DNA of 64,000 bases from Acutalibacteraceae bacterium (GCA_045639785.1 JAZUDT010000002.1:4121-68120); one strand, 5' to 3'; shown: positions 42,340 through 54,532, numbered from the stretch's first letter. Numbers and translations are program-made. Notes: a model not told the origin generated them from the letters alone.

Positions 42340-43546
42340 AATACCTTATATCGTCCATGGCGTGGTCATTTTCCTTTACGGGCGCATCTTTGCCGTGAGA
42401 TGAGTCCCAGCGGTAGAGCGAAAATTCTCTCAGTGCGTCCCTGCAGGAGGGTGAAATGCGTATAAGTGAGCTTCTCAGTGCGTCTGAGACTTTTCTTATT
42501 CCGTCAATTACGTCATTATCCGCCTTGATAACACGGTATTTTCCGTGTCTGCGTATGCATTCGATAAATGACGATGCCGACGGGTCAACGATAACTCCCG
42601 AAATATCATTTTCGGCGCAGAGAGAGCAAAGGTCGGCGTAATATTCCTCGTCGGTCTTCTGATAGCCCTCTCTTCTTGAAGAAAAGTAATGTTCCCTTTC
42701 CCTGTACCATACGCCGTCGCCGTGTAGTCCCCACAAACCCATTGAAGTCGGGTTGACTGTTCCGTAGTCACACGAGACAAAATGGGACGCCGCTTCATTG
42801 TCGGGAGGGGCAAGGGTATATTTTCCGTTTGCCGCATCGGGGTAAACAAGTCCGTCCGCCGCAACCCATTTTCCGAGCACGAAGCGTTCATAAAACGCTC
42901 CGCTGTAAAGGTTTTCGTACCGGCTTATCACTTTTTTTGAAAGGGAGGGATTGTCTTTCATTGTAAAGTGAAGATACAGTGCGTTTTTTTCTTCGCTTTT
43001 CTGTATCCATTCCTTATAAAACCAGTGCTGAGGATTTTCGGGATTGCAGTTGAACCAGAATCTTGCGCCGTCGAGCGAGCAACGTGCGAGAGCCTGCTCC
43101 ACGAATGAACGGGGCATAAGTGCGACTTCATCGAGCAGTACACCGCCCAATGTTACGCCCTGAATAAGTGAAGCGGAGCTTTCGTCCTTTCCGCCGAAGA
43201 GATAGTATCTGTTCTTTCTGCCTGACTGTGATATTTCGATAAAATTACGGGTGATGGTCTCCTTGCACTCAAAGCCGAGCCTTTTAAGCACCGGTATAAG
43301 CGGAGTGACGACATTTCTCCTCAGTGAGGACACCGTCTTTCCGCACAGCGCAAAATCGGCAGAGCTGAAAGAAGAAAAGCTCCAGGCGATGAAGCCTATC
43401 GACATACAGGTTGTTTTTCCGCTTCTCACCGCTCCGTCACAGATTATTGCGTCTTTTTCGCAATAGGGGGAATTTTTATTCCACCAGCTCAGAGCGGTGA
43501 GCTGTTTTTCACTGAAAGCGGTGAAATCTTTTTTACCTGTTTTCAT
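42269..43546 (-). CDS. phage terminase large subunit (PBSX-family-like)
   Basis: Walker A CDGAVRSGKTT, Walker B-like GVLLDE, and a C-terminal nuclease-domain acidic motif (HAMDDIRY). 425 aa. Confidence 0.85.
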   Translation of the reverse strand: MKTGKKDFTAFSEKQLTALSWWNKNSPYCEKDAIICDGAVRSGKTTCMSIGFIAWSFSSFSSADFALCGKTVSSLRRNVVTPLIPVLKRLGFECKETITRNFIEISQSGRKNRYYLFGGKDESSASLIQGVTLGGVLLDEVALMPRSFVEQALARCSLDGARFWFNCNPENPQHWFYKEWIQKSEEKNALYLHFTMKDNPSLSKKVISRYENLYSGAFYERFVLGKWVAADGLVYPDAANGKYTLAPPDNEAASHFVSCDYGTVNPTSMGLWGLHGDGVWYREREHYFSSRREGYQKTDEEYYADLCSLCAENDISGVIVDPSASSFIECIRRHGKYRVIKADNDVIDGIRKVSDALRSSLIRISPSCRDALREFSLYRWDSSHGKDAPVKENDHAMDDIRYFVSTVLFKKEDDFFVVAAERNSV

Positions 43547-44024
43547 CGTATCCTTTCCTCAGGGCGTCGGCACCGTCCTCGATGGCTTTGAAAAAGCTGT
43601 CGGTCGGATTTTCGTCATTGACGGCGGCAAGCTGAGAGAGCTTTTCAAGAGCCTTTATTCTGTCGAAAAACTTGATTTCGACTCCCTTTCCCTTGCTGAC
43701 CTTGATTTCCGAAATTCCAAACAAATCCATGTTTTTCACTTCCTCAGCGTCAAAATCCTCCGAAAGAGCAATTTTGACGGCGTCGCTGACACAGCCGAAG
43801 GCTATTCTTCTCAGCCCCGCCTCAACCTCGTTCGGGCAGGCACGGTTTTCCTTTGAAAGGGCGGCTATTTTTGCTTTAACGTTCTCTCTTCTGAGGAGCT
43901 TCACCGCAGTTCTCTCGGGCATAATGCCGTAGCCCGCCTTGATTGCCGCCTCAGTGGCATTTCTCCCCACGCTGTAATAAGTGCAAAACAGTTTTTCTTT
44001 TTCTGTGAGTGCTTTGTCTTTCAT
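43533..44024 (-). CDS. phage terminase small subunit
   Basis: LTEKEKLFCTYYSVGRNATEAAIKAGYG is the HTH signature of Terminase_2-type small subunits. It overlaps the terL start by 14 nt. Confidence 0.8.
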   Translation of the reverse strand: MKDKALTEKEKLFCTYYSVGRNATEAAIKAGYGIMPERTAVKLLRRENVKAKIAALSKENRACPNEVEAGLRRIAFGCVSDAVKIALSEDFDAEEVKNMDLFGISEIKVSKGKGVEIKFFDRIKALEKLSQLAAVNDENPTDSFFKAIEDGADALRKGYDENR

Positions 44025-45534: not shown

Positions 45535-45563
45535 TTGTGCATACCTGTATCATTTGATATAAT
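45535..45563 (+). promoter_or_regulatory. sigma-A-type promoter (extended -10) of the peptide-export operon
   Basis: TTGTGC (45535-45540), a 17-nt spacer, then TGaTATAAT (TG at 45555-45556, TATAAT at 45558-45563). Confidence 0.6.
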
Positions 45564-45598
45564 AAATCAGTAAATAATTCAGTGGGAGAAACGTGCAG

Positions 45599-46018
45599 AT
45601 GAAAGATGAAATATTCAGAAAGAAAAGTCTTGATAAGGTGAAATCCCCCGAAAGCCTCGATGATTATATCCGCCTCTCCAATCCGGGAGTGTGGCTCCTG
45701 CTCGTCAGCGTCATAGTACTTTTAGCCGGTGCATGCGTCTGGGGCATATTCGGTCACATAGACAGAACCGTTGATACAAATATTTTTTCTCATGACGGAA
45801 CAGCGGTTTGCTATGTATCTGAAAAAGATATATCCGCCGTAAAACCCGATATGACCGTAAAGGGCGAAAACTATGAGGCTGTAATTGACAGTATCGGAGG
45901 AAAAACCGAATGGGGATATGTATGCCTTCTTCATTCCGACCAAAAGCTACCGGACGGACTTTATGACGGGGAGATAATCACAAACAAAATAAGACCGTTA
46001 TCATTTATTTTAAGCTGA
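45599..46018 (+). CDS. truncated HlyD-like (NHLP-type bacteriocin secretion adaptor N-terminal region) membrane protein
   Basis: FRKKSLDKVKSPESLDDYIRLSNPGVWLLLVSVIVLLAG is the conserved N-terminus plus TM helix of HlyD-family bacteriocin secretion proteins. The ORF is only about 139 aa, against roughly 400 aa for full adaptors. Confidence 0.6.
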   Translation: MKDEIFRKKSLDKVKSPESLDDYIRLSNPGVWLLLVSVIVLLAGACVWGIFGHIDRTVDTNIFSHDGTAVCYVSEKDISAVKPDMTVKGENYEAVIDSIGGKTEWGYVCLLHSDQKLPDGLYDGEIITNKIRPLSFILS

Positions 46019-46028
46019 GGTCGTTCTT

Positions 46029-48200
46029 ATGGCAGAAAAAGCAAAAAAACCTATATCAAAAGGCGTAGCCAAGGTGCCTGTCGTAATGCAGCTCGAAGCA
46101 CTGGAATGCGGTGCGGCAAGCCTTTGTATGATTTTAGCCTACTACAATAAATGGATACCTCTTGAACAGGTCCGTGAGGATTGCGGTGTATCCCGTGACG
46201 GCTCAAACGCAATGAATATGCTGAAAGCGGCAAGGGCATACGGGCTTAATGCAAGAGGATATCGCTATGAGCCGGAAAGTCTTAAAGAAAACGGCTCTTT
46301 CCCGTGTATTATACATTGGAATTTCAATCATTTTGTTGTGCTTGACGGCTTCAGAGGCGGAAAAGCCTTTTTGAATGACCCGGCTAAAGGCGCATACAGC
46401 GTTTCTATGGAGGCTTTCGACGAATCCTTCACCGGAATATGCCTTCAGTTTGAGCCGTCGGATTCCTTCGCCCCCTCGGGAAAGCCGAAAAGTATGCTTT
46501 CCTTTGCCGCAAAAAGGCTTAAAGGGAGCAGCGTTGCGATTATATTTACAGTCCTGACGGGCGTTATAGCCGCCACAATGGGCTTTGTTCAGCCTGCTTT
46601 TTCACGGGTATTTCTTGATTATCTGCTCAGCGGTGAGGAAAGAGACTGGGCTGTTCCGTTTCTTATTTTCCTCGGAGCTTTTAATTTAATTCAGATAATT
46701 ATGTCGGCATTAGAGGCTGTTTATTCCCTTCGTATAAACGGCAAAATGGCGGCAGTCGGAAACGCCTCCTATATGTGGAAGGTGCTCAAAATGCCGATGA
46801 AGTTTTTTTCACAGCGTATGGCGGGAGATATTCAGGGGCGGCAGAGTTCCCACGCTTCCATTGCCAATACACTGATAGGCACATTTGCCCCTCTTCTGCT
46901 CAATGCGATCATGATGATATTCTATCTTGCGGTAATGCTGAAATACAGTGTCGTGCTGACCGTTATCGGTCTTTTGTCACTTAGTATAAACGCTTTTGTT
47001 TCGGGTTACATATCAAAAAAGCGTGTCAATATCACAAGAGTTTCTATGCGTGACAGTGCAAAGCTTGCCGCCTCCACCGTTTCCGGAATTGAAATGATAG
47101 AAACAATTAAAGCATCCGGTGCGGAAGACGGGTATTTTAAAAAGTGGTCAGGCTATCAGGCAAGTGTGAATACACAGCAGGTGAAGTTTTTGAAGCTTGA
47201 CAGGTATCTCGGTATGATACCGCAGTTTGTTTCCGTCCTTGCAGATGACCTCGTACTGTTTATCGGTGTGTGGCTGACCATGCGGGGAGATTTCACCGTT
47301 GGTATGATTATGGCGTTTCAGGGATTTCTTGCCTCATTTATGGCTCCTGCTTTGACAATGGTTTCCGCCGGACAGACTATTCAGGAAATGCGTACACAGA
47401 TGGAACGTGTGGACGATGTTATGGAGTACCCCGATGATATCGTTTTAGCTGAAAGTCAATCCGACGGTAAAATAGAAAAGCTGTCAGGAAAAATGGAACT
47501 CAAGCATATCGTTTTCGGCTATTCTCCGCTTTCTGAGCCGCTTATACATGACTTTAATCTGACGGTGACACCGGGCAAAAGTGTCGCCGTTGTCGGTGCC
47601 TCAGGGTGCGGAAAATCAACCGTGTCAAAGCTTATTTCCGGACTGTATAAGCCTTGGAGCGGTGAAATACTTTTTGACGGAAAACCGATGAATGAAATTC
47701 CGAAGAATGTTTTTCGCTCTTCGCTTGCCGTTGTTGACCAGGATATAATTCTATTTGAGGATACTATCGCAAACAATATAAAAATGTGGGATGACAGCAT
47801 TGAAGACTTTGAAATGATTATTGCCGCCCACGACGCACAGCTTCACGAGGATATTATGCAGAGACCCAAGGGCTATCAGCATAAGCTCATTGAAGGCGGA
47901 AACGGTTTTTCCGGCGGGCAGAAACAGCGTATGGAAATTGCCCGTGCTCTTGCACAGGATCCGACAATCATTATTCTTGATGAGGCAACAAGTGCTCTTG
48001 ATGCCAAGACGGAATATGAGGTCGTAAAGGCGATACGCAACCGTAATATTACCTGCATAGTTATCGCACACCGACTCTCGACCATTCGTTCCTGTGATGA
48101 AATAATCGTTATGGAAAACGGCGAAATAAAGGACAGAGGAACACATAAAGAGCTTTTAGAGACAAGCGAAATTTACCGCGAACTCATCACTGCGGAATAA
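46029..48200 (+). CDS. bacteriocin-type ABC exporter with N-terminal C39 peptidase domain (NHLP-system peptidase/permease/ATPase)
   Basis: The C39 catalytic Cys context is QLEALECGAASLCMILAYYNKW, with HFVVLDG downstream. It has 6 TM helices, Walker A GASGCGKST, signature FSGGQKQR and Walker B IIILDEATSALD. Confidence 0.9.
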   Translation: MAEKAKKPISKGVAKVPVVMQLEALECGAASLCMILAYYNKWIPLEQVREDCGVSRDGSNAMNMLKAARAYGLNARGYRYEPESLKENGSFPCIIHWNFNHFVVLDGFRGGKAFLNDPAKGAYSVSMEAFDESFTGICLQFEPSDSFAPSGKPKSMLSFAAKRLKGSSVAIIFTVLTGVIAATMGFVQPAFSRVFLDYLLSGEERDWAVPFLIFLGAFNLIQIIMSALEAVYSLRINGKMAAVGNASYMWKVLKMPMKFFSQRMAGDIQGRQSSHASIANTLIGTFAPLLLNAIMMIFYLAVMLKYSVVLTVIGLLSLSINAFVSGYISKKRVNITRVSMRDSAKLAASTVSGIEMIETIKASGAEDGYFKKWSGYQASVNTQQVKFLKLDRYLGMIPQFVSVLADDLVLFIGVWLTMRGDFTVGMIMAFQGFLASFMAPALTMVSAGQTIQEMRTQMERVDDVMEYPDDIVLAESQSDGKIEKLSGKMELKHIVFGYSPLSEPLIHDFNLTVTPGKSVAVVGASGCGKSTVSKLISGLYKPWSGEILFDGKPMNEIPKNVFRSSLAVVDQDIILFEDTIANNIKMWDDSIEDFEMIIAAHDAQLHEDIMQRPKGYQHKLIEGGNGFSGGQKQRMEIARALAQDPTIIILDEATSALDAKTEYEVVKAIRNRNITCIVIAHRLSTIRSCDEIIVMENGEIKDRGTHKELLETSEIYRELITAE

Positions 48201-48214
48201 AGGGGGTGTCATAA

Positions 48215-50401
48215 ATGGGATGGTTTGAAGAACAGCTTAAATATCGGGAAGAAACTGACAATGCCGACTTTGCTGATGCTATAGATTCCATTGCCGGTGC
48301 GGTTATGGGAAGACATTTGCAGGATGCCCTGAGCCAGAATGAGATTGCCGATTCCGCCATTGATGAAATACTGAAATTCTATCACTGCAAGACAAGGACG
48401 GAAGAAATTCCGCCGCAGATAAAAACACCAGAAGAAAAAATCAAATACCGTATGCGTCCGTTCGGTATTAAGAGCCGCACGGTAACGCTCGACAGGGGCT
48501 GGTACCGCCATGCGGTGGGTGCAATGCTCGGCACGCTAAAAGAGGACGGCTCCGCCACCGCTCTGATACCGGGCAAGTTTTCCGGCTATCATCTCATAAA
48601 CTTCAAAACGGGTGAACGGGTAAAACTCAACCGAAAAAACGAAAACCTCATTAATAAGGAAGCATTATGCTTTTACGAGCCGCTTCCTCAAAAGGCTCTT
48701 TCGGTGAGCGACCTTCTGAAATTTATGTTTCAGCATCTCAGTTTTTCGGATATTTTTCTGTATCTGCTTCTTATGGCACTTTCGTCCGCCTTGGGGCTTC
48801 TTTCCCCTCTTTTCACAAGGTGGCTTTTCAGCGACGTTCTCGAAAGCGGTAATTTGCAGATTTTAGTTTCCCTTGCAATATTTATGATATGCTTTTCAGT
48901 AAGCAGTCTTTGCTTCGGCACATTTCAGACGCTTATCAATTCACGCATTTCGATAAAGCAGAATATTGCCGTGCAGGCGGCGGTTATGAACCGCATTATA
49001 AGTCTGCCGCCGTCATTCTTCAAAAACTATTCCGCCGGTGAGCTTTCACAGCGTGCCTCTTATGTTCAGTCACTGTGCTCCACCATGTTCAACACAATAG
49101 GTATGACGGGACTGACTTCTCTCTTTTCACTTATATATATCGGGCAGATTTTTGTCTTTGCTCCGTCACTTGTCGTGCCCGCTCTTCTCATCACTGTTTT
49201 AACGGTTGTTCTTTCCCTTATAACTACGTTTATGCAGATAAGAATTACACGTGAAACAATGGAAATTTCCGCAAAGACAAGCGGTCTTACATATTCAACA
49301 ATTACGGGCATACAAAAAATCAAACTTGCCGGAGCGGAAAAAAGGATGTTTTCACGATGGGCAAGACAATATGCAAGAGAAGCACAGCTCAGCTACAATC
49401 CGCCTCTCTTTCTTAAGTTGAGCACGACAATGAGCCTTGCACTTTCACTTATCGGAACAATGGTGCTTTATGCCGTTGCGATAAAAAATCAAGTCGGTGT
49501 TGCCGATTACTATGCTTTCAACACCGCATACGGTATGGTTTCATCGGCGTTTATGTCTGCTGTATCCATTGCCGTGACCGCCGCAAACATAAAGCCGACG
49601 CTTGAAATGGCAAAGCCCATTATGGAAGCTGAGCCGGAGGTGCACGACGGAAAAGAAAATATTGCCGAGCTTCATGGTGCTATTGAGCTGTCGCACGTTT
49701 CTTTTCGCTATGAGGAGTCAATGCCGAATATAATCGACGATTTGTCACTGAAAATAACACCGGGTGAATATCTTGCCGTTGTCGGTCCCACAGGATGCGG
49801 AAAAAGTACACTTCTGCGTCTGCTTTTAGGCTTTGAAACGCCGCAAAGGGGAAATATTTTATTTGATAAAAAGGATATTGTTTCAATAGACCTCGAATCA
49901 CTTCGCAGAAAAATCGGCGTTGTGATGCAGGACGGAAAGCTGTTTTTAGGTGATATATATTCCAACATAGTCATTACCGCCCCCGAGCTCACCTTGGATG
50001 AAGCGTGGGAAGCGGCTGAAACAGCATCTATAGCAGATGATATTCGCAATATGCCGATGGGCATGAGCACTGTGATTTGCGAGGGACAGGGCGGCATTTC
50101 CGGCGGACAGAAGCAGCGTCTTATGATAGCCAGAGCCATCGCCCCTAAGCCGAAAATACTGATGTTTGACGAAGCGACAAGTGCACTTGATAATATTACG
50201 CAAAAGAAAGTGTCCGATGCGATAGACTCTCTCAAATGCACAAGAATTGTTATAGCTCACCGTCTTTCCACCATTCAGCACGCAGACCGTATCATTTATC
50301 TTGAAAACGGCAGGATAGTTGAAGACGGAACATATAAAGAGCTTATCGAAAAGAACGGATGCTTTGCAAAGCTTATTGAGCGTCAGAGGCTTGATATTTG
50401 A
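48215..50401 (+). CDS. second ABC exporter subunit (NHLP-system permease/ATPase, no peptidase Cys)
   Basis: 728 aa. The N-terminal approximately 150-aa non-C39 domain is followed by a TMD and an NBD (GPTGCGKST, ISGGQKQR, ILMFDEATSALD). This matches the partner ABC of NHLP/NHLM export systems. Confidence 0.85.
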   Translation: MGWFEEQLKYREETDNADFADAIDSIAGAVMGRHLQDALSQNEIADSAIDEILKFYHCKTRTEEIPPQIKTPEEKIKYRMRPFGIKSRTVTLDRGWYRHAVGAMLGTLKEDGSATALIPGKFSGYHLINFKTGERVKLNRKNENLINKEALCFYEPLPQKALSVSDLLKFMFQHLSFSDIFLYLLLMALSSALGLLSPLFTRWLFSDVLESGNLQILVSLAIFMICFSVSSLCFGTFQTLINSRISIKQNIAVQAAVMNRIISLPPSFFKNYSAGELSQRASYVQSLCSTMFNTIGMTGLTSLFSLIYIGQIFVFAPSLVVPALLITVLTVVLSLITTFMQIRITRETMEISAKTSGLTYSTITGIQKIKLAGAEKRMFSRWARQYAREAQLSYNPPLFLKLSTTMSLALSLIGTMVLYAVAIKNQVGVADYYAFNTAYGMVSSAFMSAVSIAVTAANIKPTLEMAKPIMEAEPEVHDGKENIAELHGAIELSHVSFRYEESMPNIIDDLSLKITPGEYLAVVGPTGCGKSTLLRLLLGFETPQRGNILFDKKDIVSIDLESLRRKIGVVMQDGKLFLGDIYSNIVITAPELTLDEAWEAAETASIADDIRNMPMGMSTVICEGQGGISGGQKQRLMIARAIAPKPKILMFDEATSALDNITQKKVSDAIDSLKCTRIVIAHRLSTIQHADRIIYLENGRIVEDGTYKELIEKNGCFAKLIERQRLDI

Positions 50402-50527
50402 GAGTTAGAAATTAGGAGAGAGGAGTGAGGAGTTATCCGAGCAAGAATATATTTCCATAAAAAGTGATTGCGAAGAAATAAAAAAGATGCTGTCATCTTC
50501 CACAAAAACATTAAAGGACGAATTGAA

Positions 50528-51040
50528 ATGAAAACTTCTTACTTCTCCAACCTCACTCCTAACGCTCTGAAAGAGCAAATCTACCGTGATTTTTACGGCA
50601 AGGTCTACGGTTACATACTGTCGAAAATTCAGAATGTGCAGAATGCGGAGGACCTGACGTCGAATGTTTTTCTCAAGGTATATGAAAAGCTCGACACGTT
50701 TGACGACAGCAAGGCCTCTCTTTCCACATGGATTTACACCATAACAAGAAACACGCTGACGGATTTTTACCGCACGAGAAAGGTTTTTGACGAAATACCC
50801 GAAAACCAGGAGAGCGGCTTTTCTCTTGAAGATGAGGTATGCAATGCTCAGACGCTTGAAATGCTGGCACAGGCACTTGAAACGCTTGACGAGCGGGAAC
50901 GGGATATTGTTATTTTCCGCTACTACTCGGGCAAAACGCTCAGGGATATTTCGGAGCAGATGAATATTTCGTATGCATACGTTAAGGTGCTTCAGAATAA
51001 AGCGTTGGCAAAATTGAGAAAATTTTTGGAAAATCAGTAG
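50528..51040 (+). CDS. ECF-like sigma-70 family RNA polymerase sigma factor
   Basis: Region 2 is AEDLTSNVFLKVYEKLDTFDDSKASLSTWIYTITRNTLTDFYR and region 4 is ERERDIVIFRYYSGKTLRDISEQMNISYAYVKVLQNKALAKLR. The start MKTSYF at 50528 follows AAGGA. Confidence 0.85.
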   Translation: MKTSYFSNLTPNALKEQIYRDFYGKVYGYILSKIQNVQNAEDLTSNVFLKVYEKLDTFDDSKASLSTWIYTITRNTLTDFYRTRKVFDEIPENQESGFSLEDEVCNAQTLEMLAQALETLDERERDIVIFRYYSGKTLRDISEQMNISYAYVKVLQNKALAKLRKFLENQ

Positions 51041-51066
51041 CCGCTTTTTAAATTTCATCGTATAAA
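51028..51066 (+). promoter_or_regulatory. conserved promoter/5'UTR module, copy 1 (overlaps sigma gene stop)
   Basis: ggaaaatcagtagccgctttttaaatttcatcgtataaa. It shares GAAAAATCAGTAGCC-N-CTTTT-N-AAA-N3-CATCGTATAAA with copies 2 and 3. An RBS and ATG of peptide gene a follow about 30 nt downstream. Confidence 0.55.
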
Positions 51067-51095
51067 CAGATGAAAGGGGCAAGGAGGTAACAAAA

Positions 51096-51275
51096 ATGGA
51101 AAAGAAATTTGAACTTAATGATAAAGAGCTTGAAAAAGTCAGCGGCGGACCCGAAGAACGCACGGTGCTCGGCTTGAAGGCTTCATCGGATTGCAGAAAA
51201 TGCGAATGCGGGCAGATTATTGAAGATGACGGCCTTGCGTTCTGCCCGTTTTGCGGAAGCAAAATAAGCGATTGA
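51096..51275 (+). CDS. double-glycine-leader peptide a (zinc-ribbon-like core)
   Basis: Not in the ORF track because it is only 59 aa. The sequence is MEKKFELNDKELEKVSGG / PEERTVLGLKASSDCRKCECGQIIEDDGLAFCPFCGSKISD. The RBS AAGGAGG lies 8 nt upstream. Confidence 0.7.
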   Translation: MEKKFELNDKELEKVSGGPEERTVLGLKASSDCRKCECGQIIEDDGLAFCPFCGSKISD

Positions 51276-51283
51276 TAAAAACA

Positions 51284-51323
51284 GAAAAATCAGTAGCCAC
51301 TTTTTAAAAAGCATCGTATAAAT
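51284..51323 (+). promoter_or_regulatory. conserved promoter/5'UTR module, copy 2
   Basis: gaaaaatcagtagccactttttaaaaagcatcgtataaa, followed by AAGGAGG and ATG 51353. Confidence 0.55.
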
Positions 51324-51352
51324 ATATGCAACGAGGTAAGGAGGCAATAAAA

Positions 51353-51610
51353 ATGGAAAGAAAACTTAATGCAATTTTTGATTATCAGAATTTTGAAAAA
51401 AATCCCCGTCTTGAAAAGCTTATTTCGGAAACCGAGAACCGGTATGCGAGGGAGCTTTCAGATGACGATCTCACTTTTGTCAATGCGGCTGGCGATTTCA
51501 ACATGAGCGGCGGACTTATAAGCGAAAATGAAATTTCTGAAAAAAACAGCACTCCGACATCGTCCGCTGTATTTGGTAAATCAGTCAATGTCAATGAAGT
51601 GCTTACCTAA
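51353..51610 (+). CDS. small hydrophilic protein b (possible long-leader peptide or regulator)
   Basis: 85 aa: MERKLNAIFDYQNFEKNPRLEKLISETENRYARELSDDDLTFVNAAGDFNMSGG / LISENEISEKNSTPTSSAVFGKSVNVNEVLT. The RBS AAGGAGG lies 7 nt upstream. It has no TM segment. Confidence 0.55.
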   Translation: MERKLNAIFDYQNFEKNPRLEKLISETENRYARELSDDDLTFVNAAGDFNMSGGLISENEISEKNSTPTSSAVFGKSVNVNEVLT

Positions 51611-51660
51611 GCCTGAAAATTGAATGAATAATAATTAAACTGAAAGAGGTGGATTCTGAA

Positions 51661-51900
51661 ATGAAAACAAAAGAAGAACTGAATGAGCTCAAAAAAGAAT
51701 ACGAAAACGTAAAAAGCAAGCTTTCCGAGCTTAGTGAATACGAGCTTAAAGAGGTCACGGGCGGCTATCATTGCGGGATCAATGCGAACTCCGGCACAAT
51801 GATTCATGCACCGACCTTCGGAGCGGTTGCAGATACGGCTCCATACATTGATACAGGATTATCTTCAGATGTTAACAATAAAGAAATAAAGGTCGATTAA
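51661..51900 (+). CDS. double-glycine-leader peptide c
   Basis: 79 aa: MKTKEELNELKKEYENVKSKLSELSEYELKEVTGG / YHCGINANSGTMIHAPTFGAVADTAPYIDTGLSSDVNNKEIKVD. RBS AGAGGTGG. Confidence 0.75.
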   Translation: MKTKEELNELKKEYENVKSKLSELSEYELKEVTGGYHCGINANSGTMIHAPTFGAVADTAPYIDTGLSSDVNNKEIKVD

Positions 51901-51926
51901 ATTATATTATAGGAGGAGATTTAACC

Positions 51927-52097
51927 ATGAAAACTAAAGAAGAACTGAACGAACTCAAAAAAGAATACGAAAACGTAAAAAGCAAGCTTTCCGAGCTTAG
52001 CGAAGACGAGCTTAAAGAAGTCGTCGGCGGAGTCGGAGGCGATCCGATTGACATCGAAGTATATACCAACTGGGAAATTCTACCCACAATACAGTAA
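51927..52097 (+). CDS. double-glycine-leader peptide d
   Basis: Not in the ORF track (56 aa). The sequence is MKTKEELNELKKEYENVKSKLSELSEDELKEVVGG / VGGDPIDIEVYTNWEILPTIQ. RBS AGGAGGAG. The leader is 33/35 identical to peptide c. Confidence 0.75.
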   Translation: MKTKEELNELKKEYENVKSKLSELSEDELKEVVGGVGGDPIDIEVYTNWEILPTIQ

Positions 52098-52135
52098 CGG
52101 ATTTGACAGTAAAAACTAAAAAGGAGGAATTTCTC

Positions 52136-52318
52136 ATGGAAAACGAAAAGAATAAAAAATCAATATCCGATGAAGAGCTTGGAGATGTCACCGGCGGCGG
52201 TATCCTCGACAAGCTCACGACAGGAACGCAAGTTAATTCCTCTAAAGATGACCCCGACGGTTATCAGATAAGCGAAAGACTGCGTGTTCTGATTAGACCG
52301 GGTGATACTGCTGAATAG
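52136..52318 (+). CDS. double-glycine-leader peptide e
   Basis: 60 aa: MENEKNKKSISDEELGDVTGG / GILDKLTTGTQVNSSKDDPDGYQISERLRVLIRPGDTAE. The RBS AAGGAGGA lies 7 nt upstream. Confidence 0.75.
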   Translation: MENEKNKKSISDEELGDVTGGGILDKLTTGTQVNSSKDDPDGYQISERLRVLIRPGDTAE

Positions 52319-52380
52319 CTTGCTGATAAATACTCAGAAAAAATTTGGAATAAGAGTAATAAAAAATGCCAACGATATCC

Positions 52381-52420
52381 GGAAAAATCAGTAGCCCTTT
52401 TGAAAAAAGCATCGTATAAA
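52381..52420 (+). promoter_or_regulatory. conserved promoter/5'UTR module, copy 3
   Basis: ggaaaaatcagtagcccttttgaaaaaagcatcgtataaa, followed by AAGGAG and ATG 52452. Confidence 0.55.
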
Positions 52421-52451: not shown

Positions 52452-52616
52452 ATGAAACTTGATGAAAACGAAAGCAAGAAGCAAGCAGAAATTAACGGAG
52501 ATGTACTTACGGAAGTCACGGGCGGTAAGGAAGATTTAACAATCAAGCCCAATGACGGAGAATTCTGGCATTCGTGGAATCCGGCATTTATCATTTCAGA
52601 CGAATCCATCAAATGA
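52452..52616 (+). CDS. double-glycine-leader peptide f
   Basis: Not in the ORF track (54 aa). The sequence is MKLDENESKKQAEINGDVLTEVTGG / KEDLTIKPNDGEFWHSWNPAFIISDESIK. RBS AAGGAG. Confidence 0.7.
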   Translation: MKLDENESKKQAEINGDVLTEVTGGKEDLTIKPNDGEFWHSWNPAFIISDESIK

Positions 52617-52684: not shown

Positions 52685-52879
52685 ATGGAAAACGAAAAGA
52701 ATATTAAAGCAATATCCGAAGAAGATCTTAAAAATGTCACCGGCGGCAAAGAAAATATCAATTCTGAGGAACTTTGGTTTGAGGGTACAGATGTTGACAG
52801 GATTGCCATGCTAAATTCCGGTCCCGCAAACGGAGTCACTCCGATAATTTTTACCGCCACAGTGAATGGGGATAAGTAA
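52685..52879 (+). CDS. double-glycine-leader peptide g
   Basis: 64 aa: MENEKNIKAISEEDLKNVTGG / KENINSEELWFEGTDVDRIAMLNSGPANGVTPIIFTATVNGDK. The leader is paralogous to peptide e. Confidence 0.7.
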   Translation: MENEKNIKAISEEDLKNVTGGKENINSEELWFEGTDVDRIAMLNSGPANGVTPIIFTATVNGDK

Positions 52880-52915
52880 ATTATCGTTTTGTTTTGAAAA
52901 GCAAGTAAAAATCAG

Positions 52916-52952
52916 AAAAACGCTTGAAACCTTTGCGTTTCAAGCGTTTTTT
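52916..52952. terminator. bidirectional terminator shared by the peptide operon and the recombinase gene
   Basis: aaaaacgcttgaaac / gtttcaagcgttttt form an 11-bp core stem extended by A/T tracts. The recombinase stop codon (52940-52942) lies in the right arm. Confidence 0.75.
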
Positions 52953-54427
52953 GATTTTGGTGCACCGAAATCGGTGAAATCCGAACCTTTTTCTGCCGCT
53001 TCAATTTCGGCAAAGGTTATTGTTTTTGAACCGTCTTTGAAATTAAAAGTGATTACCATTTTGTCATCGTCAAGATAAATTGCGTTGATAAATGTATCAA
53101 TCAGCTTGCGGCGATGTTCAAGTTTCTCTATGTTAAGCTTTCTCAATCTGTGGAACCAAAACAGTATCTGTTCTCTTGTAAGAACCGGTTTTGACATTTC
53201 TTCTTTCATTATCTGAACCGAAAGTTCGCCTTTTTGCTGTTCAAGTTCTTCAAGTCTTTGTTTGGTTGACGGTGTAATTATGCCTTGCTCTATTGCGTTC
53301 AGCATATTATTTATAGCTTTTTCAGTCTCTGAATACCGTTTTTGAAGTATCGGTAAAACCTTGTTTTCAGAACCTAATTTTTCTAAAGCCATATCGGCAA
53401 GGCGTTCAATCAGATCATCATCAAGAATGATTTTTTGTATCTGTTCAAGGACTAAATTCTCTATCCAATCCTTTTTTACGGTCTTTTTATTACATCCACG
53501 GTGTTCTTTTACGCTGACACATTTATAGTATCTGTGAACCTCACCTGTATGACTTGTACCGCTTTCGCCAACCATAAAGCATTTACATTTTGCACAGTAA
53601 AGTTTAGTTGTCAACAGATATTCATCTTCGGCTTTATGTTTAGCCGGAGCTTTTTTATTTAATGCCATTCGCTCCTGTACTCTGTCAAACATTTCTTGGG
53701 TTACAATAGCGGGAATACCTCCGGGGATAACAACATCCTTGTATTTATATTCGCCTATGTACTTACGGTTATGAAGCATACTTGTAACATTATCCGTATC
53801 AAGCTTGCCGTTATGCCGCTGTGTTCTGACACCTCTGATATTCAATTCATCGGCTATCTGCTGCATACCCATTCCGTTTGCATACATCTCAAAAGCGTCC
53901 GCAACGGCAGGCGAAGTTATGGGATCAAGCTGATAATGTTTATCGCTGTCAATTACATATCCGATAGGGAGCGTACCGCCGTTATACTTGCATTTAAGGG
54001 CATTTTCTTTCATTCCACGGTTTACTTTTTCGGCAAGTTCAACGGAATAATATTCTGCCATACCCTCAAGCATTGTTTCAAGAAGCACGCCTTCTGAGCC
54101 TTTTGAAATGGCTTCGGTTGCAGAAACAACCTTAACGCCGTTCTTTTTTAATGCCGCTTTATAGTGTGCAGAATCAAAACGATTACGAGCAAATCTGTCA
54201 AGCTTCCAAACTATAACAACATCGAAATTTTTTCTGCTGCTGTCTTTAATCATCCTTTGAAAATCAGGTCTTTTATCGGTTTTTGCAGAAAATGCACGGT
54301 CGATATATATATCAACTATATTGATGCAGTTCCGTTCGGCAAATTCCTTGCACTCACGAATCTGACCTTCAATAGATTCTTCACGCTGACTGTCCGAAGA
54401 ATATCTTGCATAAATTACACCGTTCAT
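52940..54427 (-). CDS. large serine recombinase (resolvase/invertase catalytic domain + recombinase + zinc-ribbon domains)
   Basis: MNGVIYARYSSDSQREESIEGQ carries the catalytic Ser motif. Also present are VIVWKLDRFARN and the Cys-rich CAKCKCFMVG...YYKCVSVKEHRGC zinc ribbon. The start at 54427 is the first Met before the conserved N-terminus. Confidence 0.9.
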   Translation of the reverse strand: MNGVIYARYSSDSQREESIEGQIRECKEFAERNCINIVDIYIDRAFSAKTDKRPDFQRMIKDSSRKNFDVVIVWKLDRFARNRFDSAHYKAALKKNGVKVVSATEAISKGSEGVLLETMLEGMAEYYSVELAEKVNRGMKENALKCKYNGGTLPIGYVIDSDKHYQLDPITSPAVADAFEMYANGMGMQQIADELNIRGVRTQRHNGKLDTDNVTSMLHNRKYIGEYKYKDVVIPGGIPAIVTQEMFDRVQERMALNKKAPAKHKAEDEYLLTTKLYCAKCKCFMVGESGTSHTGEVHRYYKCVSVKEHRGCNKKTVKKDWIENLVLEQIQKIILDDDLIERLADMALEKLGSENKVLPILQKRYSETEKAINNMLNAIEQGIITPSTKQRLEELEQQKGELSVQIMKEEMSKPVLTREQILFWFHRLRKLNIEKLEHRRKLIDTFINAIYLDDDKMVITFNFKDGSKTITFAEIEAAEKGSDFTDFGAPKSKNA

Positions 54428-54532
54428 TTTCTCACTGTCCTTTCTGCCGGGTTTCAGGGCTGTCCCTGACAAGTGCCGTGCATATGCAACGGCGATGCTT
54501 GATAAGACAATGTCCATTGGATTTCAAGCATC

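Follow-up and report, generated by a model that had tools for sequence, protein, structure and literature searches.

We analysed a 64,000-nucleotide (nt) stretch of DNA from an Acutalibacteraceae bacterium (GCA_045639785.1, JAZUDT010000002.1:4121-68120), hereafter the window, in which a single plus-strand gene cluster spans 45.5-53.0 kb. The cluster encodes a peptide exporter, a small sigma factor of the extracytoplasmic function (ECF) type and, downstream of the sigma gene, an array of seven small genes (a-g) with double-glycine (GG)-type leaders. A short module is present in three copies, ahead of genes a, b and f, and our data suggest that it is very probably a promoter of this sigma clade. 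The sigma gene, the modules and the peptide genes are listed here; module scores are those of the position weight matrix (PWM) described below.

50528..51040, + strand: ECF-type sigma factor, 170 amino acids (aa); Pfam Sigma70_r2 and Sigma70_r4; TIGR02937 at 106 bits against a cutoff of 42.9
51038..51066, + strand: predicted promoter module copy 1; TAGCC 51038-51042, T-tract 51045-51049, -10 CGTATAAA 51059-51066; PWM 53.9 bits
51096..51275, + strand: peptide a, GG leader and Cys-rich core; open reading frame (ORF)
51294..51322, + strand: predicted promoter module copy 2; TAGCC 51294-51298, CGTATAAA 51315-51322; PWM 51.2 bits
51353..51610, + strand: peptide b, of the sigma-partner family; alignment gives a 47-aa conserved N-terminal part and a variable tail
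51661..52318, + strand: peptides c (51661-51900), d (51927-52097) and e (52136-52318); ORFs
52392..52420, + strand: predicted promoter module copy 3; TAGCC 52392-52396, CGTATAAA 52413-52420; PWM 42.7 bits
52452..52879, + strand: peptides f (52452-52616) and g (52685-52879); ORFs
52908..52958, + strand: strong intrinsic terminator, the only one in the peptide array; terminator scan, fold -28.5 kcal/mol, z -4.5

An earlier note on this DNA had described three copies of a repeat, the first overlapping the stop codon of the sigma gene. A pattern search bore this out: AAATCAGTAGCC-N12/13-CATCGTATAAA had exactly three plus-strand matches (51031-51066, 51287-51322 and 52385-52420, with 0, 0 and 1 mismatches) and none in 100 dinucleotide-preserving shuffles. 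A repeat search recovered the same family and extended it to 78 nt, through the ribosome-binding site (RBS) and the first codons. The AAATCAGTAGCC and CATCGTATAAA blocks were identical across the three copies, and the spacer and 5' untranslated region (5'UTR) had diverged, so that copy 3 and copy 1 share an overall identity of 60%. The repeat is not as uniform as the note had written it: copy 1 carries GGAAAATCAG, with four A's, and copies 2 and 3 carry GAAAAATCAG, with five. Each copy is followed by an RBS and the ATG of a, b or f, also as noted earlier, and the C of CGTA lies 37, 38 and 39 nt ahead of the respective start codons (51096, 51353 and 52452).

The functional core of the module appears to consist of TAGCC, a T-tract and, exactly 16 nt from TAGCC, CGTATAAA, which can be written TAGCC-n-TTTT-N11-CGTATAAA. 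This retains the 16-nt gap of the GTAGCC-16 nt-CGTATA arrangement first proposed and drops its leading G, which is dispensable in relatives. In copy 1, the sigma ORF (50528-51040) ends in GAA AAT CAG TAG (51029-51040), for E-N-Q and the stop, and the TAG of the -35 TAGCC doubles as the stop codon. A conserved ATG at 51070-51072 in this copy marks the likely start-site region.

The sigma protein contained only Sigma70_r2 and Sigma70_r4/r4_2 as Pfam domains, the composition of an ECF sigma factor. Its closest solved structures were RpoE (2q1z) and SigW (5wuq), every top PDB match was an ECF sigma, and the best-scoring named NCBIfam families were likewise ECF (BldN, SigZ and SigM family). At E ≤ 1e-10 we found at least 838 homologues, mostly in gut and rumen metagenome assemblies. 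In the searchable literature on ECF sigmas with C39 exporters, NHLP/Nif11 peptides and peptidase-containing ATP-binding cassette (ABC) transporters, we found neither this sigma nor its promoter or partner peptide described, and the ECF reclassification paper makes no mention of such a sigma group.

We assessed conservation of the module in 12 related clusters whose sigma factors are 59-90% identical to that of the window. The motif was present at the sigma/peptide junction in all 11 peptide-bearing clusters; in L179, which has the sigma gene and no peptide genes, there was no motif. Among 14 junction-type instances (12 clusters, the window's included), 13 read TAGCC-N16-CGTA(T/C)AA, the L095 instance has TGGCG in place of TAGCC, and the gap was exactly 16 nt in all 14. 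The spacer was free to vary except for the T-tract just after TAGCC. In L183, L185, L186 and L094 the sigma gene stops with TAA or TGA and the motif begins a few bases downstream, and conservation of the motif is therefore not due to coding.

We derived a 44-nt PWM (44 bits) from the junction sites alone. Fifty distinct sites found with it fit one gap-free 44-nt register, and in them the start codon follows the C of CGTA at a median distance of 38 nt. CGTATAA was invariant in the window copies and nearly invariant in relatives, which matches a CGT-core -10 element. The -35-proximal T-tract (consensus TAGCC-n-TTTT(T)) carried clear information content in the PWM. Relatives showed the -35 variants TTAGCC, CTGCC and GTTGCC, with GCC the sole invariant part; more distant sigma clades kept the same spacing with the -35 boxes CTGCC, GTTGCC and TTTGAAA, the last paired with CGTAAAT. 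The motif thus has the two blocks and fixed spacer (16 nt) of an ECF promoter and stands at promoter distance from genes.

Two further readings of the module were rejected. That the conserved ATG after the -10 element opens a leaderless mini-ORF is contradicted by reading frames that differ between copies and by L087, where the ATG is directly followed by TAA. GAAAAT upstream of TAGCC as the true -35 element would result in a 24-nt spacer, and it is missing from non-junction sites.

The genome from which the window derives (2.08 Mb, both strands) contained only four PWM sites of 12 bits or more, three of them the cluster copies. The fourth, on another contig at C52:15890 (29.6 bits), ends 32 nt before the gene of a 582-aa surface protein. 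The genome-wide search suggested in the earlier note thus yields one further site, the motif being nearly absent elsewhere in the 2.08 Mb. Strict pattern scans returned only the three cluster copies in this genome, and TCAGTAGC-N11-17-ATCGTATAA had no match in 400 genomes of the family. Their demand for a G before TAGCC made these patterns too strict, and the additional real sites came to light with the PWM and a looser pattern. When 301 family genomes were scanned with TAGCC-N16-CGTATAAA, genomes with multiple matches scored high in the PWM and single matches scored negative, as expected by chance. The motif or a variant was present in 3/3 of the genomes among these 301 that have both the sigma gene and peptide b (G000, G229 and G099). 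In G229, which belongs to another genus and has a sigma 63% identical to that of the window, TRGCS-N16-CGTATAA had six matches and its reversed control none. Four of the six lie 31-40 nt before genes for GG-leader-type peptides, at four separate places.

By inspection, the genes after the 50 sites comprised 26 of the b family, about 17 with GG or Nif11 leaders and four for signal-peptide proteins (three membrane-anchored surface proteins and one lipoprotein). Of the remaining sites, one lies 145 nt before a radical-SAM gene and two have no downstream gene. With the motif defined, members of the putative regulon, among them scattered 'orphan' peptide genes and some surface proteins, can be recognised directly in genome sequence.

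The 582-aa surface protein (C52:15890-17702; L187:2955-4703) has a signal peptide, GGNGG repeats and a C-terminal membrane anchor. A motif site in G167 precedes the gene of a 188-aa protein whose likeness to it is limited to the anchor and, at 81% over 27 aa, the signal peptide, and a similarly built surface protein lies behind a 17.9-bit site in G219. With L187, the loci behind these observations are L226 and L229:7883-9010, and modular surface proteins therefore seem to belong to the sigma regulon.

We also scanned 80 metagenome loci with sigma homologues 29-68% identical to the window sigma. PWM sites of 10 bits or more occurred in 31 of these loci, and their strand was invariably that of the sigma gene. 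About 24 loci share an operon that begins with a 78-aa b-family peptide and continues with the sigma gene, GG/Nif11-leader peptides and often radical-SAM genes; its first gene starts 26-30 nt after the C of CGTA. No sites were found in 80 control loci with unrelated ECF sigmas. The controls came from a sigma-alignment search of genome contigs, in which the matches listed were mostly unrelated ECF sigmas (Chloroflexota and other phyla). As judged by this comparison, the predicted promoter upstream of sigma-containing operons in distant relatives is in the typical autoregulatory position of an ECF sigma.

These data suggest that the modules are, with high probability, promoters of this sigma clade. 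Comparative genomics supports the sigma dependence proposed in the earlier note: the two-block motif with its 16-nt gap recurs in 50 sites, takes an autoregulatory position in more distant relatives, precedes dispersed GG-peptide genes in another sigma-bearing genome and is nearly absent elsewhere in this genome. The module would be an ECF (group 4) promoter with -35 TAGCC, a -35-proximal T-tract, an invariant 16-nt gap and -10 CGTATAAA. Transcription would probably start about 10-13 nt past the C of CGTA, near a conserved A/G-TG; the 5'UTR would then measure about 25 nt and contain a strong RBS. The 170-aa sigma, encoded by the last gene of a sigma-A-driven exporter operon, would guide RNA polymerase to the modules and turn on GG-leader peptide genes whose products the exporter would secrete. 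Its predicted targets are the three cluster sites and the site before the surface-protein gene elsewhere in the genome. The motif itself, how it is conserved, spaced and distributed in genomes, and its association with the sigma clade are observed; recognition by this sigma, the start sites and promoter strength are what we infer from sequence. As far as such comparison reaches, the putative sigma/promoter pairing is one that recurs across many uncultured gut Clostridia, and it assigns a concrete, testable candidate promoter to a large and uncharacterised clade of small sigmas from Clostridia of the gut and rumen. This clade lives inside secretion islands for GG-leader peptides and small proteins.

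Several observations weigh against this assignment. The -35 element is TAGCC, without the AAC typical of ECF -35 elements, and the window cluster has no motif copy before the sigma gene or the exporter operon. G219, a metagenome-assembled genome that is 97% complete, carries good sites ahead of GG-peptide and surface-protein genes, at least five in number, and neither a sigma homologue of this clade nor a C39 exporter was detected in it. G167 has three strong sites and an exporter variant without an adjacent sigma gene, and retains only a 29-residue sigma remnant. The simplest reading of both genomes is a missing or decayed island, because GG peptides need a C39 exporter and the sigma gene sits in the exporter operon; room remains for another factor that reads the motif. 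These two exceptions keep the main explanation short of certainty. Finally, TAGCCA-N17-TATAAA agrees with the sigma-A hexamers at 4/6 and 5/6 positions, and sigma-A may therefore read the modules weakly.

We therefore weighed other readers of the motif. If the housekeeping sigma-A or another host sigma read the modules, the link to the sigma gene would reflect shared island ancestry only. The hexamer agreement and the sites retained in G219 and G167 without a detectable intact sigma gene of this clade fit this explanation, which we nevertheless consider unlikely. For a sigma-A promoter, it is atypical that CG always precedes TATAAA and that the final base is always A, with no -7 T. A sigma-70 scan flagged no module, in agreement with the poor TTGACA/TATAAT pair described earlier, and the best such reading, TAGCC(A/G/C)-N17-TATAAA, lacks the -7 T in all copies. 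The exporter operons of the same clusters, by contrast, carry textbook sigma-A promoters (TTGaca, 17 nt, TATAAT, often TG-extended, in six clusters including the window's). The motif is also autoregulatory in the roughly 24 sigma operons and missing from control ECF loci, and its -35 box changes in the more distant sigma clades. In G219, moreover, the GG peptides are left without the exporter they require, as would be the case if an island were missing. Very unlikely, in our view, is an operator for a DNA-binding regulator that is not a sigma factor. A conserved motif at a fixed distance from gene starts would suit an activator or a repressor too, but two asymmetric blocks 16 nt apart, a promoter-like distance from the RBS, an ECF-like -10 and a T-tract argue for a promoter, and neither the four-gene cassette nor the operons of b-family and sigma genes contain a further conserved regulator gene.

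The repeat might instead work as RNA: it could form a structure in the 5'UTR, or it could influence the processing or stability of read-through transcripts. There is no terminator between the sigma gene and peptide a, so read-through would cover copy 1, and this copy folds somewhat better than its shuffles (z -2.8). Copies 2 and 3, however, fold no better than theirs (z -1.1 and -1.3), the small stem around the -10 element shows no compensating changes in relatives on inspection of the sequences, and the conserved blocks are not mutually complementary. The dispersed sites in G229 and G219 are intergenic, with no upstream operon to supply read-through. Folding of the modules gave no convincing, conserved structure, and an RNA role is extremely improbable. 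We give just as little credence to the idea that copies 2 and 3 are inert duplication scars of the sigma 3' end without a function of their own. Both keep GAAAAATCAG, the last codons of the sigma gene, in non-coding DNA, yet the blocks are 100% identical among copies while spacer and 5'UTR have diverged, and the same core occurs without a scar ahead of peptide genes elsewhere.

The sequences also suggest how the copies arose. The earlier note had read copies 2 and 3 as duplications of the junction, and this idea holds, given that both keep GAAAAATCAG and that functional-looking dispersed sites elsewhere lack this scar. The closest cluster, L087 (sigma 90% identical), has one promoter-type site and seven peptides, and this site and its first gene are nearly letter-for-letter window copy 2 and peptide b. 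The core of peptide a is homologous to the fourth peptide of L087, its leader is new and short, and copy 1 has its RBS and first codons in common with copy 2. Peptide f, with copy 3, is missing from L087, and peptide g is the orthologue of the last L087 peptide. Copy 2 would thus represent the ancestral junction promoter, and copies 1 and 3 would have come with peptide genes inserted along with a duplicated junction segment, which would explain the scar of the last sigma codons in copies 2 and 3. Islands of this kind appear to grow by adding cassettes of promoter, leader and core.

On contig C43 of G167 (L231, L222, L211), one motif copy adjoins what is left of the sigma 3' end, 29 residues interrupted by a stop, and a second copy 3.2 kb away also retains an GAAAATCAG scar. 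Junction duplications therefore recur in other lineages.

The earlier note had divided the array into three transcription units (a, b-c-d-e and f-g), and this part of its proposal needs qualifying. The terminator scan detected no terminator-like hairpin after a or e, which makes nested transcripts (a-g, b-g and f-g) likelier than three separate units. Most likely, the three predicted promoters give nested transcripts that end at 52908-52958 and add up along the array, and read-through from the exporter operon may add to them. Peptides c, d and e have no promoter copy of their own, and their leaders are repeated (three repeat families).

Upstream of the sigma gene, the cluster consists of the following features.

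45535..45563, + strand: sigma-A-type promoter of the exporter-sigma operon; TTGTGC, 17 nt, TG-extended TATAAT; exact string located
45593..46018, + strand: short HlyD-like adaptor, 141 aa, truncated
46029..48200, + strand: peptidase C39 / ABC exporter subunit 1; TIGR03796 at 913 bits against a cutoff of 853
48215..50401, + strand: ABC exporter subunit 2; TIGR03797 at 713 bits against a cutoff of 709

The sigma-A-like promoter lies exactly where it had been placed before, and promoters of the same kind, with canonical TTGaca/TATAAT, occupy the equivalent position in five other clusters. With the models of the NHLP/Nif11-type cassette (TIGR03794/03796/03797), both ABC subunits scored above the curated cutoffs; subunit 1 has the Pfam domains Peptidase_C39, ABC_membrane and ABC_tran. 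The adaptor matched the N-terminal part only, aligning to the first 47 of 421 positions of TIGR03794 (33.8 bits against a cutoff of 156), and adaptor homologues of 137-141 aa are conserved in related clusters. Most related clusters keep the gene order short HlyD, ABC subunit 1, ABC subunit 2, sigma, peptides.

Of 301 family genomes, only 5 had a close sigma homologue, and two sampled genomes of the same genus both lacked one. The cluster is flanked by a gene for a phage-like small terminase (43533-44024, minus strand) and one for a serine recombinase (52940-54517). This patchy occurrence, together with these flanks, suggests that the cluster is a mobile or patchily inherited island. The 3' end of the serine recombinase gene overlaps the terminator of the peptide operon. 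A 127-nt gap (50402-50527) separates ABC subunit 2 from the sigma gene in the window; L087 holds a GNAT acetyltransferase gene at the same place, the gap is 3-100 nt in other relatives, and in L186 the genes overlap.

Some of the predicted cargo carries recognizable domains. The core of peptide e (52136-52318) matches Pfam Flagellin_N (E 2.8e-4). Of two relatives (L181:524-904 and L185:3566-3841), one fuses a GG leader to about 90 aa resembling the flagellin N-terminus and the other to a segment resembling the flagellin C-terminus. Once secreted, flagellin-like GG cargo may act by mimicry and disturb the assembly of flagella or the sensing of flagellin. In the related cluster L184 (5542-5949), the gene that comes first after the motif joins a GG leader to an NlpC/P60 cell-wall hydrolase domain.

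Peptide b stands out as a constant companion of the sigma factor. The first 47 residues of its family are conserved (consensus ME.KLKKLFDYQRFEKN.RLEKLI.ETE.RYA.ELSDDDL..VNAAG) and end in Ala-Ala-Gly, a version of the double-glycine signal; the tail is variable, and in the more distant loci it is short and charged, for example TVPDEKRRRHEDSTV. A profile of the family gave nothing meaningful against Pfam, NCBIfam and PDB, and a word-based search for peptide b returned only nine matches. The family is present in 11/11 peptide-bearing clusters of the window's type. In 54 of 66 metagenome loci the sigma gene is immediately preceded by a b-family gene, and in six of the remaining loci the upstream sequence is too short to tell. 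In most of the more distant relatives (loci L099-L177) the two genes are translationally coupled, the sigma start overlapping the b-family stop (ATGA). No ORF for a classical anti-sigma factor (ASD/ZAS type, usually membrane-bound) was found beside the sigma gene in the window, where the earlier note had likewise seen no anti-sigma-like membrane protein, or in the related clusters inspected.

The constant pairing and the absence of a classical anti-sigma suggest that peptide b controls the sigma factor, and it may be a candidate anti-sigma factor that is removed by export. By extension, the modules could be the output of an export-coupled switch in which the b-family anti-sigma is cleaved and exported by the C39 ABC exporter, the cargo promoters fire only when export capacity is free, and peptide b feeds back on its own promoter, copy 2. 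We regard this switch as possible and propose it only tentatively; if true, a bacteriocin exporter would here serve as the basis of a checkpoint resembling that of FlgM. A defined promoter permits a direct test of the coupling of expression to export through the always-present partner peptide. The sigma/promoter pair is compact and may be orthogonal to host promoters, which would be of use for expression work in anaerobic Firmicutes.

Among known systems we compared the cluster with Bacillus subtilis sigma-W, whose promoters also have a 16-nt spacing (TGAAAC-N16-CGTA). In B. subtilis, CGTA is the sigma-W-selective -10 element, and ECF promoters often have a -35-proximal T-tract, tGAAACnTTTt (Gaballa et al., PMC5758882). 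The modules share with sigma-W promoters (and with those of sigma-V, -X and -M) the CGTA core of the -10, a T-tract one base after the -35 and the division into two blocks. Also shared are a probable autoregulation of the sigma operon, suggested here by the more distant relatives, and the place of SigW among the closest solved relatives of the cluster sigma. They differ in the -35, which is GAAAC for sigma-W and TAGCC (invariant GCC) here, and in a -10 extended to CGTATAAA. The sigma-W regulon consists of envelope-stress genes, whereas here the predicted targets are genes for exported double-glycine peptides and there is no RsiW-type membrane anti-sigma.

Other systems resemble the cluster in organization. 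MibX/MibW and PspX/PspW are ECF sigma/anti-sigma pairs that control actinomycete lantibiotic clusters, and there too a cluster-encoded ECF sigma drives the promoters of a ribosomal peptide cluster. They have a classical membrane anti-sigma, another consensus and modification enzymes, in contrast to mostly unmodified GG-leader peptides in Clostridia with the sigma gene inside the exporter operon. The clostridial group-5 sigmas UviA, TcdR, BotR and TetR read promoters with TTTACA and an AT-rich -10. Like the system proposed here, they are dedicated small sigmas that drive adjacent bacteriocin or toxin genes; their promoter consensus and subfamily are different, and the cluster sigma matches the ECF model TIGR02937. 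FlgM (partner of sigma-28) and BtrA (partner of BtrS) are anti-sigma factors secreted by type III secretion. They are alike only if peptide b is an anti-sigma, in that a small sigma partner would bear the export signal of the cargo machine; the candidate machine here is a C39 peptidase ABC exporter rather than a type III system, and the partner domain ends in Ala-Ala-Gly.

Streptococcal ComX (SigX) reads the cin-box TACGAATA. It is likewise a small alternative sigma without a classical anti-sigma, it is associated with GG-leader peptides and a C39 ABC exporter, and its -10-like box contains CG. ComX differs in its induction by a pheromone two-component system or ComRS, in the lack of a defined -35 and in having no family membership with the cluster sigma at the sequence level. 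It has been mentioned as ECF-like (PMC7826278). Our estimate is that the cluster represents an ECF-type sigma/promoter pair, with an unusual -35 that overlaps the sigma's own stop codon, dedicated to double-glycine secretion islands.

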